In this document: positions 7,611-56,832 of the stretch, piece after piece
Numbering within the stretch: position 1 is the stretch's first letter
How the letters are laid out: every line of letters begins with the position of its first letter
Sequence record: ON528742
Source: Shigella phage ESh32
Reading direction: 5' to 3' (one strand)
DNA length: 64,000 nucleotides
Notes under the pieces: generated by a model
What the model was told of the DNA's origin: nothing
Seen by the model: only the letters and a program-made list of their open reading frames with translations
Databases searched by the model: none
Made by a program: the position numbers and the translations under genes

Positions 7611-7640
7611 GTTTACAAGTTGGCAAGGTTATGGTATAGT
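7611..7640 (+). promoter_or_regulatory. T4-type early promoter
   Basis: gtttacaagttggcaaggttatggtatagt. Confidence 0.55.
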
Positions 7641-7668
7641 AATCTTGTCGACTGCCAAGGAGAAGAGA

Positions 7669-12688: not shown

Positions 12689-12690
12689 TT

Positions 12691-12720
12691 GTTTACAAGA
12701 CCGTTCCTCTGTGGTACTAT
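12691..12720 (+). promoter_or_regulatory. T4-type early promoter (cassette copy B)
   Basis: gtttacaagaccgttcctctgtggtactat. Confidence 0.6.
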
Positions 12721-12748
12721 ACAACTATCAACTACGGAGGAACAGAAA

Positions 12749-13331: not shown

Positions 13332-13739
13332 ATGAAACAGTTGATAATTAAAAGATTGAATTTATTGATATGTTGTTTATGCGTAGTAGTTGCATATGGT
13401 TATTACGCAATTAATGATTATATGCATTATAAAGATTATGATGTTACTGTAGTTAATACCCTTACAGGAACTCAAGGAAAGGGGTCTAGTTTATCGTTTA
13501 TTGCCGTATATGAACTCAAAGACGGTTATAGATTTAGTGAATATATTTCACCGGAGATGTATTCTTCAATAGAAAAAGGTGATAATATTACTGTAAGTTT
13601 ACGTCCTTTCGACGTAAAACAGACATTGTTTGATAATATCGTTTGGTTCTTTGGAATGGTATTAGTTCAATCTGTGTGTGGTGCTTATATAGTCTGTTCC
13701 ATCATATTCTGCGTATTTAGTAAAATTGAAATTGAGTGA
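13332..13739 (+). CDS. membrane protein
   Basis: 135 aa, N- and C-terminal hydrophobic helices. Confidence 0.5.
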   Translation: MKQLIIKRLNLLICCLCVVVAYGYYAINDYMHYKDYDVTVVNTLTGTQGKGSSLSFIAVYELKDGYRFSEYISPEMYSSIEKGDNITVSLRPFDVKQTLFDNIVWFFGMVLVQSVCGAYIVCSIIFCVFSKIEIE

Positions 13740-29719: not shown

Positions 29720-29906
29720 CATTAATGATGAATTCATAGCAAATATTGATTATACCGAAGAAGATTCTAGATATGTTGGAATAATTTATATCACATCAAA
29801 AGCAGCACAAGGTGTTGTTTGCATGGCTGAATTTGATGAATACTTTTTAGATTATGATGATATGATAGAATGGTCTAAAAGATACATTAAAAGGAATCTT
29901 TTGTGA
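29691..29906 (+). CDS. hypothetical protein (start uncertain)
   Basis: ORF 29643..29906; ATG 29691 or GTG 29700. Confidence 0.4.
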   Translation: MHTVKFSTFDINDEFIANIDYTEEDSRYVGIIYITSKAAQGVVCMAEFDEYFLDYDDMIEWSKRYIKRNLL

Positions 29907-31585
29907 AGAATTTTAAACTAAACCGAGTTAGGTATCAAAATATAATGTCAGTAGGTGGAAATCCTATTGACATTCAACTAGATAAGGTTCAAAAAACTCT
30001 TATTACCGGGCGAAATGGTGGTGGTAAGTCTACTATGTTAGAAGCCATCACATTTGGGCTTTTTGGCAAGCCATTTCGTGATGTAAAGAAAGGTCAATTA
30101 ATAAACAGCACAAATAAGAAAGAACTTTTAGTTGAACTGTGGATGGAATATGATGAGAAAAAGTACTATATCAAAAGAGGACAAAAACCAAACGTTTTCG
30201 AAATCACCGTTAACGGTACACGTCTTAATGAATCTGCCAGCAGTAAAGATTTCCAAGCAGAATTTGAACAGCTTATCGGAATGTCATATGCCAGTTTCAA
30301 GCAGATTGTTGTCCTTGGTACAGCAGGGTATACCCCTTTCATGGGTTTGTCGACCCCTGCACGAAGAAAGCTTGTGGAAGACCTGCTTGAGGTAGGAACA
30401 TTAGCTGAAATGGATAAGCTTAATAAAGCGCTAATACGTGAATTAAATTCACAAAACCAAGTGCTTGATGTTAAAAAAGATAGTATTATCCAACAAATTA
30501 AAATATATAATGATAACGTTGAACGCCAGAAAAAATTGTCTGGTGACAATCTTACTCGTCTGCAGAATATGTACGATGATTTGGCAAAAGAAGCTAGAAC
30601 GCTAAAATCGGAAATAGAAGAAGCTAATGAAAGATTAGTTAATATTGTTTTAGACGAAGACCCGACTGATGCATTTAATAAAATCGGTCAAGAAGCAGTT
30701 TTAATTAAATCAAAAATTGACTCGTATAATAAAGTCATTAATATGTATCACGAAGGTGGATTATGTCCAACCTGCTTGTCACAATTAAGTTCCGGTGATA
30801 AAGTTGTTTCTAAAATTAAAGATAAAGTTTCTGAATGTACGCATTCGTTTGAACAGCTTTCAACGCACCGTGATAATTTAAAAGTTCTTGTTGATGAATA
30901 CCGAGATAATATTAAAACACAGCAGTCGTTGGCAAATGATATTCGCAATAAAAAGCAATCTCTAATCACGACGGTAGATAAAGCTAAAAAGGTTAAAGCA
31001 GCTATAGAAAAAGCATCTTCTGAGTTTATTGACCATGCTGATGAAATAGCACTGCTTCAAGAAGAACTTGATAAAATTGTTAAGACAAAAACTAATTTAG
31101 TAATGGAAAAATACCACCGAGGAATTTTGACTGATATGCTCAAAGATTCTGGTATTAAAGGTGCTATTATTAAAAAGTACATTCCATTATTTAATAAGCA
31201 GATTAACCATTATCTTAAAATAATGGAAGCGGATTATGTGTTTACATTAGATGAAGAATTTAATGAGACAATTAAATCCCGTGGTCGCGAAGATTTTAGT
31301 TATGCTTCATTTAGTGAAGGTGAAAAAGCAAGAATTGATATTGCTCTTTTATTTACTTGGCGTGATATTGCTTCTATTGTATCTGGTGTTAGTATTAGTA
31401 CATTAATACTCGATGAAGTGTTTGATGGGTCATTTGATGCCGAAGGTATTAAAGGTGTAGCTAATATTATAAATTCAATGAAAAACACTAATGTTTTTAT
31501 AATTTCGCATAAAGACCATGACCCGCAAGAATATGGTCAGCATCTTCAAATGAAGAAAGTTGGTCGATTTACTGTAATGGTTTAA
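29903..31585 (+). CDS. 46: recombination endonuclease subunit gp46 (Rad50/SbcC-like ATPase), GTG start
   Basis: Walker A GRNGGGKST; coiled-coil middle with CPTC zinc hook; 560 aa. Confidence 0.9.
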   Translation: MKNFKLNRVRYQNIMSVGGNPIDIQLDKVQKTLITGRNGGGKSTMLEAITFGLFGKPFRDVKKGQLINSTNKKELLVELWMEYDEKKYYIKRGQKPNVFEITVNGTRLNESASSKDFQAEFEQLIGMSYASFKQIVVLGTAGYTPFMGLSTPARRKLVEDLLEVGTLAEMDKLNKALIRELNSQNQVLDVKKDSIIQQIKIYNDNVERQKKLSGDNLTRLQNMYDDLAKEARTLKSEIEEANERLVNIVLDEDPTDAFNKIGQEAVLIKSKIDSYNKVINMYHEGGLCPTCLSQLSSGDKVVSKIKDKVSECTHSFEQLSTHRDNLKVLVDEYRDNIKTQQSLANDIRNKKQSLITTVDKAKKVKAAIEKASSEFIDHADEIALLQEELDKIVKTKTNLVMEKYHRGILTDMLKDSGIKGAIIKKYIPLFNKQINHYLKIMEADYVFTLDEEFNETIKSRGREDFSYASFSEGEKARIDIALLFTWRDIASIVSGVSISTLILDEVFDGSFDAEGIKGVANIINSMKNTNVFIISHKDHDPQEYGQHLQMKKVGRFTVMV

Positions 31586-31599
31586 TTTATAAGAGATTA

Positions 31600-31623
31600 T
31601 GCTTTAATTTATTAGAGTATAAT
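31600..31623 (+). promoter_or_regulatory. candidate MotA-dependent middle promoter inside a 9-bp inverted repeat
   Basis: TGCTTTA, 11 nt, TATAAT; flanked by agagattat / ataatctct. Confidence 0.5.
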
Positions 31624-31640
31624 CTCTATGGAGGAAAAAC

Positions 31641-31829
31641 ATGGAATATTCAACTGGACAGCATCTATTAACTATTCCTGAAATAAAACGATATATTCTG
31701 AGAAATAATTTTTCTAATGAAGAGCATATAGTTACTGAATCTATGCTTAGGAATGCATTTAAAGCAGAATATACAAAAATAATGTCCAATAGAAATGAAG
31801 CTTGGACTGTTACTGATTATTATGACTAA
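31641..31829 (+). CDS. hypothetical protein
   Basis: 62-aa ORF; GGAGGA RBS. Confidence 0.5.
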   Translation: MEYSTGQHLLTIPEIKRYILRNNFSNEEHIVTESMLRNAFKAEYTKIMSNRNEAWTVTDYYD

Positions 31830-31838
31830 AGGTGTATT

Positions 31839-32228
31839 ATGACTAAAATTACTGTGAATTATACTGTTGATGTAAAAGATATTCAGCCAAAACACGTGCG
31901 TTCTGAATCAAATCCACAAAACCAAAATAAAATTCGTCGAGCATGGGTTTTGTCTCTTTCTGATAACGCAATGGAAGTTATTCAGAACAAAATTAAATCT
32001 GCACCTGCTCGTCATGCGTATTATGAAGCTATCGATCGTGAAGTAAGTAATAAATGGATTGAACTAATGCGCAAACATACTGCAGAATCCCTAAACGCCG
32101 GTGCTAAATTTATTATGACTTCATGTGGTGAACGCCTTGAAGATGATTATTGCGGTAATGCAGATGAACGCCTAATTGTTGCTGCTCAAATTGTTGCGGA
32201 AACAATTGCGGCTGATTTTAATCGTTAA
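31839..32228 (+). CDS. rpbA: RNA polymerase-binding protein RpbA
   Basis: 129 aa; position between 46 and 45; matches remembered T4 RpbA. Confidence 0.75.
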
Positions 32229-32229
32229 T

Positions 32230-32254
32230 TGCTTTATTAAATTAGTTATAAAAT
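32230..32254 (+). promoter_or_regulatory. candidate MotA-dependent middle promoter for gene 45
   Basis: TGCTTTA box about 10 nt upstream of TATAAAAT. Confidence 0.45.
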
Positions 32255-32283
32255 TAAATCTCATTTGAATTGAAGGAAATTAC

Positions 32284-33021: not shown

Positions 33022-33981
33022 ATGATTACCGTAAATGAAAAAGAACACATTCTTGAACAGAAATATCGTCCATCTACTATCGATGAATGTATTCTTCCCG
33101 CCTTTGATAAAGAAACCTTTAAATCTATTACAAGTAAAGGTAAGATTCCACATATTATTCTTCATTCTCCTTCTCCAGGAACAGGTAAAACAACTGTAGC
33201 AAAAGCATTGTGTCATGATGTAAATGCTGATATGATGTTTGTGAATGGATCAGATTGTAAAATTGATTTCGTTCGTGGTCCTTTGACTAATTTTGCCAGT
33301 GCAGCTTCATTTGATGGTCGTCAAAAAGTAATCGTTATTGATGAATTTGACCGCTCAGGTTTAGCAGAATCTCAGCGACATCTTCGTTCCTTTATGGAAG
33401 CTTATAGTTCAAACTGTAGTATTATTATTACTGCTAACAATATTGATGGTATTATTAAACCGCTTCAGTCACGCTGCCGAGTTATTACATTCGGTCAACC
33501 GACCGATGAAGATAAAATTGAAATGATGAAGCAGATGATTCGTCGATTGACTGAAATCTGCAAGCATGAAGGAATTGCTATAGCTGATATGAAAGTTGTA
33601 GCAGCTTTGGTTAAAAAGAATTTTCCTGATTTTCGTAAAACTATTGGCGAGCTCGATAGTTATTCATCTAAAGGTGTTTTGGATGCTGGTATTTTATCAC
33701 TGGTTACTAACGATCGTGGTGCTATTGATGATGTTCTTGAGTCTCTCAAAAATAAAGATGTTAAACAACTCAGAGCTTTAGCACCAAAATATGCAGCTGA
33801 TTATTCGTGGTTCGTGGGTAAACTTGCCGAAGAAATCTATTCACGTGTAACTCCACAAAGTATTATTCGTATGTACGAAATTGTTGGTGAAAATAATCAG
33901 TATCATGGTATTGCAGCTAACACTGAATTACATTTAGCTTATCTTTTCATTCAATTAGCATGTGAAATGCAGTGGAAGTGA
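33022..33981 (+). CDS. 44: clamp loader large subunit gp44 (AAA+)
   Basis: Walker A SPGTGKTT; 319 aa from ATG at 33022 (track ORF 33007..33981). Confidence 0.9.
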
Positions 33982-43530: not shown

Positions 43531-43559
43531 TTTACAAGCTGACAAGACTATGGTATAGT
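43530..43559 (+). promoter_or_regulatory. T4-type early promoter
   Basis: gtttacaagctgacaagactatggtatagt. Confidence 0.6.
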
Positions 43560-43587
43560 AGTCTTGTTGGTTAATGAGGAGATTGTT

Positions 43588-55005: not shown

Positions 55006-55011
55006 AAAGTT

Positions 55012-55041
55012 GTTTACTTCCTCGGTTAGTTGTGGTATTAT
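55012..55041 (+). promoter_or_regulatory. T4-type early promoter
   Basis: aaaagttgtttacttcctcggttagttgtggtattat. Confidence 0.6.
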
Positions 55042-55068
55042 AACACCATAGCTACTGAGGATAATAAA

Positions 55069-56660: not shown

Positions 56661-56684
56661 AGTTTAAAATTTTTTCATAAAACT

Positions 56685-56714
56685 ATATACATCAGTAGTT
56701 GATTATGGTACTAT
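56685..56714 (+). promoter_or_regulatory. degenerate copy of the early promoter/leader cassette (copy D)
   Basis: ttttttcataaaactatatacatcag ... atggtactat, with -35 degenerated relative to copies A and C. Confidence 0.4.
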
Positions 56715-56832
56715 ATCAATATCAACTACTGATATAGAAAATAATTTGGAGAATAAAATGGAAAATTTGCCAAAGGTGCTGCTACTCTTCTGAAATGCAT
56801 CGCTCCAATGTTCAATTAACGAGGAAATTGTA

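Follow-up and report, generated by a model that had tools for sequence, protein, structure and literature searches.

The junction between genes 46 and 45.2 in this phage carries a published T4 middle promoter, P45.2, with both promoter boxes in the arms of a long RNA hairpin. This hairpin is real and was previously under-described. We propose, at a probability of roughly 55%, that the junction is a composite promoter and stem-loop boundary element, for which we infer the effects of the hairpin.

By its sequence, the window, i.e., the whole 64-kb stretch analyzed, comes from a T4-type phage (Tequatrovirus). In the list of open reading frames, genes 47, 46.2, 46.1, 46, 45.2, rpbA, 45, 44, and 62 surround the junction in this order, all on the + strand, and the junction region matches more than 500 Tequatrovirus genomes. 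Phage T6 and the window showed 100% identity across 481 bases around the 46/45.2 junction, and the T4 sequence is identical, base for base, from the end of gene 46 into gene 45.2. Gene 46 (29903..31585, +) starts with GTG, encodes a 560-aa Rad50/SbcC-like recombination nuclease subunit, has the same length and neighbours as T4 gene 46, and ends with the stop codon TAA at 31583-31585. A spacer (31586-31640) separates this stop codon from the ATG of gene 45.2 (31641..31829, +), which encodes a 62-aa protein of unknown function and is followed by rpbA and gene 45. Gene 45.2 is the first gene served by P45.2. The numbering of the window is antiparallel to that of T4 in GenBank; the T4 coordinate equals 64887 minus the window position. 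This offset was tested on four published middle promoters besides P45.2, namely, P47 (T4 36576, window 28311), P46i(1) (T4 34394, window 30493), P46i(2) (T4 33803, window 31084), and P45 (T4 32626, window 32261). Each of these sites lies 7 nt past a MotA-type motif that was found independently.

The promoter motifs are intact. The MotA box TTATGCTTTA (31597..31606, +), which includes TGCTTTA at 31600-31606, agrees with the consensus (a/t)(a/t)(a/t)TGCTTtA at all 10 positions. A sigma-70-type -10 element, TATAAT (31618..31623, +), follows after an 11-nt spacer (31607-31617), which agrees with the spacing of 12 +/- 1 given with the consensus by Hinton (2010; PMC2988021). Table 1 of the same review lists the middle promoter P45.2 with a start site at T4 33257, citing Hsu & Karam 1990. 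Transferred through the identical sequence, this start site is the G at 31630 (+), 7 nt after TATAAT; in T4, GGAGG begins with this G, and the ATG of gene 45.2 lies 11 nt downstream. The first-pass annotation had described a middle-promoter-like element downstream of gene 46, with both repeat arms, TGCTTTA, and TATAAT 11 nt apart. All of these were found, and the description was correct and understated because the element has a perfect MotA box, is identical to T4, and corresponds to a published promoter. We conclude from this correspondence that the flagged element is, in sequence terms, P45.2 and not a new regulatory element, since the promoter had already been mapped in 1990. The annotation named an absence of transcript ends at the site as its refutation; the 5' end of P45.2 RNA maps here. 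The MotA dependence of P45.2, and initiation rather than processing at 33257, rest on the listing in the review. A potential RegB cut (GG^AG) in the 45.2 Shine-Dalgarno sequence lies 2 nt away from the mapped 5' end, and GGAG is the core motif cut by T4 RegB (Uzan & Miller 2010; PMC3014915).

Other sources provided little on this promoter. A promoter is annotated on the same bases in two GenBank records, one of which is phage SA20RB. The copies of the T4 records NC_000866, AF158101, and M10160 that we examined had no promoter or RNA features, and the supplement of a T4 dRNA-seq preprint (10.1101/2024.04.04.588121) listed nothing at 33255-33259 or for 45.2. Gene 45.2 was not mentioned in T4 RNA-seq and omics papers, and Hinton (2010) was the sole relevant source found in a literature search for P45.2 or gp45.2. 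A sigma-70 -35/-10 scan reported no promoter at the site. The pattern TGCTTNA-N11-13-TANNNT occurred 17 times in the window against 4.9 expected, and none of 100 shuffles reached this number.

The hairpin is larger than the 9-bp inverted repeat first reported. The sequence AGAGATTAT at 31592-31600 is complementary to ATAATCTCT at 31619-31627; the annotated interval of 31591-31624 started 1 nt early and lost 3 nt of the right arm. The repeat was described as flanking the boxes; it rather overlaps them. The left arm includes the a/t flank of the MotA box together with its first T, and the ATAAT of the -10 element lies in the right arm. An inverted-repeat search extended the arms to 17 nt (31592-31608 and 31611-31627) with two mismatches, both of which become G·U pairs in + strand RNA (G31601·U31618 and U31604·G31615). 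Sense RNA, therefore, forms a core of 16 uninterrupted pairs (31592-31627), including the two G·U pairs, closed by a 4-nt loop. The 5' arm of the core, AGAGAUUAUGCUUUAA (31592..31607, +), contains the whole MotA box and has pair probabilities of approximately 1.0. The loop UUUA (31608..31611, +) lies within the promoter spacer, and the 3' arm, UUAGAGUAUAAUCUCU (31612..31627, +), contains the -10 element and provides G31615 and U31618 for both G·U pairs. Only four of the 16 core pairs are G-C, and the stem is AU-rich. Outside the core, the strand UUUAUA (31586..31591, +), which begins 1 nt past the stop codon of gene 46, pairs with 31627-31632. This outer helix has five to six weaker A-U and G·U pairs, with probabilities of 0.35-0.93 in longer read-through RNAs. 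The doubled stem length, the outer pairs that reach the 45.2 Shine-Dalgarno sequence, and the recurrence of this layout in T4-like phages had all been missed in the first reading.

RNA folding, which had been suggested as a check, gave a stable structure. The minimum free energy of sense RNA was -22.1 kcal/mol (z -4.55), which was not matched in 200 dinucleotide shuffles. The antisense RNA reached -10 kcal/mol (z -1.7), and this strand asymmetry points to RNA, not DNA. No Rfam family matched the hairpin; the best hits, with E values of about 0.5-1, were far below gathering scores.

A perfect 9-bp repeat alone is unremarkable in this A/T-rich DNA, and another occurs within 200 nt (about 100 nt away). 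The complete stem is different. When the 64 kb were searched on both strands for stems of Watson-Crick or G·U pairs with loops of 3-10 nt, the P45.2 hairpin was the longest uninterrupted stem on either strand. Four stems had at least 15 pairs, all on the + strand, whereas 0.37 were expected per shuffle. In a sliding 56-nt fold scan of the + strand, the hairpin ranked approximately 17th (-19.3 against a mean of -7.4, sd 3.4). Since the MotA-box flank and TATAAT are by nature partly self-complementary, we also used constrained shuffles, in which the MotA box, -10 element, and Shine-Dalgarno sequence were fixed and the other 28 positions were shuffled. None of 20,000 such shuffles reached the energy of the hairpin (mean -4.9, sd 2.1, best -17.6). 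Among the 31 MotA-type motif hits in the window, P45.2 folded at -18.1 kcal/mol, the next at -10.9, and the median was near -3.5. P45.2 is, thus, an outlier, which rules out structure as a general trait of middle promoters. Based on the stem-length, constrained-shuffle, and motif-hit comparisons, the hairpin is a separate feature superimposed on the promoter and not a by-product of the promoter motifs.

The core hairpin spans -38 to -3 relative to the P45.2 start. RNA from P45.2 lacks the core entirely: it begins 3 nt beyond it, at 31630, with its own Shine-Dalgarno sequence (GGAGGAAAAACAUG). Since the core is upstream of +1, it exists only in read-through RNA. The hairpin-bearing RNA comes from early promoters, from P47 and P46, and from P46i1/2, the pair located within gene 46. 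In these RNAs, the hairpin comprises 16-21 bp, begins 1-7 nt past the gene 46 stop codon, and ends at the 45.2 Shine-Dalgarno sequence or 3 nt into it. The Shine-Dalgarno GGAGG (31630..31634, +), which includes the GGAG motif, pairs through its GGA with 31586-31588 in read-through RNA. The unpaired probability of this GGA was 0.05-0.15 in read-through RNA versus 0.68-0.89 in P45.2 RNA. The last two G residues were mostly open in both RNAs, and the start codon was marginally involved. The folding models, thus, suggest only partial masking of the Shine-Dalgarno sequence, through weak outer pairs. From the known ribosome footprint, we infer that termination of translation at the gene 46 stop codon would melt the outer helix together with the basal pairs of the core.

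These features are best explained by a boundary element that combines the promoter with the stem-loop. The stem-loop would act on RNA initiated upstream, for which it would provide a structured 3' boundary of the gene 46 message. Following any cut further downstream, this boundary would block 3' exonucleases. On the same read-through RNA, fewer ribosomes would enter independently at 45.2, except where a ribosome that finishes gene 46 unwinds the stem at its base. P45.2, whose transcripts start 3 nt downstream of the core with an unstructured leader, would then renew the expression of 45.2-rpbA-45. We favour the boundary element because the geometry of stop codon, stem, and Shine-Dalgarno sequence is common to early-promoter cassettes, because a second genus keeps a hairpin at this promoter with a different sequence, and because the stem lacks the canonical requirements of a terminator. 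The first-pass annotation had offered stabilization of the gene 46 transcript as one role of the hairpin, a role that it may have. Points against the boundary element are the partial masking of the Shine-Dalgarno sequence, a VR26-like promoter without structure, the lack of covariation, and a Mosigvirus Shine-Dalgarno sequence outside the stem. In the literature searched, which did not include Hsu & Karam 1990, Miller 2003, or Gram & Rueger 1985, we found no functional data on the hairpin regarding 3' ends, processing, or translation, and no mention of a hairpin around T4 P45.2.

Termination was the other role first suggested for the hairpin, and it was poorly supported. As an attenuator or terminator, the stem-loop would stop or reduce polymerase arriving from gene 46 and the promoter would restart transcription, as proposed for the promoter-early stem-loop (PeSL) cassettes. 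A PeSL stem-loop of RB49 placed between a promoter and lacZ cut expression approximately as much as rrnB T1 (PMC2839356). Moreover, the P45.2 hairpin resembles an intrinsic terminator in being stable and directly after a stop codon, and the SA20RB record contains a software call (WebGeSTer/TransTermHP) of a "rho-independent terminator" at exactly this hairpin, overlapping its own middle-promoter call. However, the stem is followed by AUGGAGGAAAAAC in the T4 type and by AAAUUAAAUGG in Mosigvirus, neither of which is a U run. The RB49 stems tested as terminators were G/C-rich, whereas the P45.2 stem is AU-rich and unusually long. Our terminator scan was silent at the site, yet it and the fold scan detected terminators with a GC-rich hairpin and T-run elsewhere in the window. 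A canonical intrinsic terminator is, thus, ruled out by the four G-C pairs in 16, the tail, and the lack of a scan call, and we regard attenuation in the broader sense as unlikely.

A pure translational gate is also improbable. The sole role of the hairpin would then be to make the ribosome-binding site of 45.2 inaccessible in read-through RNA, as in T4 e, soc, 49, and I-TevI, and gp45.2 would be produced only from P45.2 RNA or by coupling to gene 46 translation. The outer pairs do cover the GGA of the Shine-Dalgarno sequence in read-through RNA only, and a helix that begins 1 nt past the gene 46 stop codon would be opened by a terminating ribosome. A promoter inside a hairpin follows the same logic as that documented for gene e and I-TevI (PMC3014915). 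Coupling between the two genes is suggested in related phages by sequence: genes 46 and 45.2 overlap (ATGA or TAATG) in Gelderlandvirus, Karamvirus, Bragavirus, Winklervirus, and Jiaodavirus, where translation may be coupled and where neither a promoter nor a hairpin was found at the junction. However, pairing involves only three of the five Shine-Dalgarno bases and consists of weak U·G and A-U pairs. Furthermore, the 16-bp core adds nothing to masking, which leaves the core unexplained by a gate alone, and the Mosigvirus Shine-Dalgarno sequence lies outside the stem.

The Mosigvirus (RB69-like) junction cannot be aligned with that of T4, yet it has a MotA-like box, AAACGCTTTA, a 12-nt spacer, and TATAAT. 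It also forms an unrelated 10-bp hairpin, GAUGUGGUUA/UGACCACAUC, with the -10 element at the apex (z -3.1; 1 of 200 shuffles). This stem ends 9 nt before GGAG and was invariant in the five sequences sampled. Since the Mosigvirus stem excludes GGAG, masking of the Shine-Dalgarno sequence cannot be the function common to both genera. In the Mosigvirus AV116, three adjacent changes (AAA>GTG) lengthen the stem from 10 to 13 pairs; either selection or a templated quasi-palindrome mutation could account for this triple change. VR26-like phages keep a promoter motif, TAATGCTTTAA-N-TATAAT, in direct overlap with the stop codon of gene 46, and no significant structure was detected at the junction (z -0.27). 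A hairpin seen there in a single fold was rejected because it was no better than shuffles.

Within Tequatrovirus, 371 of 443 records were at least 99% identical over the 81-nt junction. Among the variants read, differences were limited to the A-run before the ATG, one additional A behind the stop codon, and A31628G, in which a U·G pair is retained. No covariation was detected, the core being unchanged in all sequences read, five Tequatrovirus variants (of 443 records) and five Mosigvirus sequences (of 141 records), and we judged the variation too thin for a covariance model. The variants adjacent to the stems were compatible with pairing, namely, A31628G, C/T at the base of the Mosigvirus stem, and the AV116 change. 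In comparison with phage teqdroes, divergence was limited to a patch in gene 46 (31288-31534), and 45.2 and rpbA differed by 0-1.3%. Extra conservation of the intergenic region was ruled out since 45.2 and rpbA are equally conserved; sequence conservation is, therefore, uninformative about the stem.

The hairpin may have no selected function. It would then be a by-product of an A/T-rich, partly self-complementary promoter and quasi-palindrome "perfecting", or a remnant of promoter-cassette recombination. ATTAT, in the a/t flank of the MotA box, is inherently complementary to the ATAAT of the -10 element, compensatory changes are absent within Tequatrovirus, and VR26-like phages do without the hairpin. 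The AAA>GTG change in AV116 has the signature of a templated quasi-palindrome mutation. The junction also appears to be an indel site and recombinationally active because opposite-strand homing-endonuclease genes have been inserted there in three lineages (RB51/RB32, Bp7, and the IMG/VR phage L019), replacing the T4-type spacer. However, the constrained shuffles did not approach the stability of the hairpin, and the thirty other MotA-type motifs lack comparable structure. Mismatches are tolerated only as sense-strand G·U pairs, the four longest stems are all on the transcribed strand, and Mosigvirus has an unrelated hairpin at the same promoter. We, therefore, find the lack of a selected function a rather doubtful explanation.

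A more specific reading, which we offer as a tentative suggestion of low probability, is that the sense-strand RNA hairpin is functional and is encoded jointly with the promoter, which would give the boxes a second meaning at the RNA level. One possibility is that the hairpin and the GGAG of the Shine-Dalgarno sequence form a processing and protection module, in which RegB or another endonuclease cuts 3' of the stem. The gene 46 mRNA would then be capped by a 16-bp 3' hairpin, and the translation of 45.2 would be inactivated on early read-through RNA. Alternatively, the 21-bp helix could serve as an RNase III-type site. If either is true, the hairpins embedded in the early and middle promoters of T4 would form a general system that cuts polycistronic RNA into units of differing stability at the points of restart. 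The hairpin and GGAG are both present in Tequatrovirus and Mosigvirus, and neither is present in VR26-like phages; this co-occurrence is compatible with such a role, but it covers three groups only.

A DNA-level switch, in which a cruciform hides or exposes the MotA box and -10 element in competition with promoter use, is highly implausible: the two boxes do lie on opposite arms of the repeat, but the DNA fold reached only -7.9 kcal/mol per strand with two G·T mismatches (A·C on the other strand), the sense/antisense asymmetry points to RNA, and cruciform control of T4 middle promoters was not suggested in the literature searched. Promoter use and hairpin formation had been called mutually exclusive at the DNA/RNA level. 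This holds for each RNA molecule; however, an RNA hairpin does not block the use of the promoter in DNA, and the cruciform is weak.

The proposed composite promoter and stem-loop boundary element has close relatives in the PeSL cassettes. Arbiol et al. (2010; PMC2839356) described PeSLs in RB49/phi1, with the stem-loop between the -35 and -10 elements or over the -10 element. Comeau et al. (2014; PMC4122927) extended them to PST/T4 and nt-1/KVP40 and named the versions with a MotA box PmSL. These cassettes consist of an intergenic promoter, a stable stem-loop between or over the boxes, and then the Shine-Dalgarno sequence and start codon of the next gene. The P45.2 site has the same layout: an intergenic promoter, a 16-bp stem over both boxes, and GGAGG at 31630-34. 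Comparable arrangements are found elsewhere in the window. Of the three other stems with at least 15 pairs, two, at 7618-7653 and 43537-43572, are built into early-type promoters, with GTTTAC, the 5' arm in the spacer, a TATAGT -10 element in the loop, the 3' arm, and then a Shine-Dalgarno sequence and ATG within a few bases. Further + strand hairpins (2593-2648, 12689-12744, 55009-55064, and others) have internal early promoters and the Shine-Dalgarno sequence of the next gene in the 3' arm. The P45.2 stem sequence itself is not repeated elsewhere in the window. By analogy, we read the P45.2 element as a PmSL, the middle-promoter counterpart of the PeSL cassettes.

There are also differences from these cassettes. 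PmSLs have been reported only for vibriophage nt-1 and PeSLs mostly for hyperplastic regions, whereas P45.2 lies in the conserved replication and recombination core. The P45.2 stem-loop, including its loop, is situated between the upstream edge of the MotA box and -3, and both boxes are stem sequence. With this hairpin, the PeSL/PmSL concept is no longer limited to variable regions and a vibriophage but reaches the conserved core of replication genes in T4 itself. A promoter-hairpin arrangement as such would not surprise a T4 specialist. The P45.2 site is a convenient test case for whether such stem-loops terminate transcription, protect 3' ends, or gate translation. It is a clean one because the stem may be mutated outside the boxes (AGAG/CUCU at the base) without touching promoter function.

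The second group of known systems comprises T4 e, soc, 49, and I-TevI, in which hairpins hide the ribosome-binding site in long transcripts and an internal late promoter yields translatable RNA (Uzan & Miller 2010; PMC3014915). The likeness to the gene e type lies in a promoter situated in the DNA of the hairpin 5' strand, so that long RNAs fold and promoter-proximal RNAs have a free ribosome-binding site. However, the gene e type uses late promoters and has the Shine-Dalgarno sequence and/or AUG in the main helix, with approximately 100-fold less lysozyme for gene e. P45.2 is a middle promoter, and its strong helix stops 2 nt before the Shine-Dalgarno sequence, with weak pairs touching GGA. 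Compared with T4 P45.2 itself, the spacer between genes 46 and 45.2 shows no difference from stop codon to start codon, and the promoter is the same element.

Insertions appear to recur at the junction of genes 46 and 45.2. A homing-endonuclease gene lies exactly between these genes, on the opposite strand, in three separate T4-like lineages, namely, RB51 (locus L004, 1730-2443; mobB-like in RB51 and RB32), Bp7 (L031, 996-1712), and an IMG/VR phage (L019, upstream of 701), and it replaced the T4-type promoter/hairpin spacer in all three. The annotated N-terminus of 45.2 also differs in RB51, with two residues in place of the initial Met and a GTG start.

Nearly all of the local divergence between the window and phage teqdroes (approximately 50 differences) fell within a 250-nt segment of gene 46 close to its 3' end (31288-31534), whereas the next 750 nt downstream, comprising the spacer, 45.2, and rpbA, differed at just 6 positions. 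This distribution marks a sharp mosaic boundary within gene 46.

In VR26-like phages (loci L020-L022, 655-700), the MotA-type motif and the stop codon of gene 46 overlap, and only 10 nt separate the -10 of this motif from the 45.2 ATG downstream. A transcript from this motif would not carry the 45.2 Shine-Dalgarno sequence (AGAGG). If it is an active promoter, the motif may serve rpbA and gene 45 rather than 45.2. In the Mosigvirus phage AV116, three adjacent substitutions (AAA>GTG; locus L040, 162-164; columns 63-65 of the Mosigvirus alignment A3) are located immediately 3' of the Mosigvirus hairpin. GTG gains three pairs with CAC across the stem, which is extended from 10 to 13 bp, a pattern characteristic of templated quasi-palindrome mutation.

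At the 3' end of rpbA (32193-32254), a short hairpin resembling a terminator (GTTGCGG..TTGCGGC, then TGATTTT) is located directly upstream of the P45 MotA box (TGCTTTA at 32230, +1 at 32261), P45 being a known middle promoter. This is another stem-loop/middle-promoter pair within this gene cluster.

Only four uninterrupted stems in the window reached the length of the 15-bp stem TGCATATGGTTATTA / TAATGATTATATGCA (13391-13426, + strand, 6-nt loop), which was not accompanied by an obvious promoter motif. Of the four longest stems without interruption in the 64 kb, two were early-promoter hairpins. Early-type promoters with a strong sense-strand hairpin built in were found at 7618-7653 and 43537-43572, and further strong sense-strand hairpins of early-type promoters at 2593-2648, 12689-12744, 55009-55064, and 56681-56736. 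The motifs of these promoters are GTTTAC ... TGGTATAAT-like, the loop holds or adjoins the -10, and the Shine-Dalgarno sequence of the next gene is within the 3' arm or just past it. This architecture matches that of PeSL, the published early promoter and stem-loop cassette of T4-like phages.
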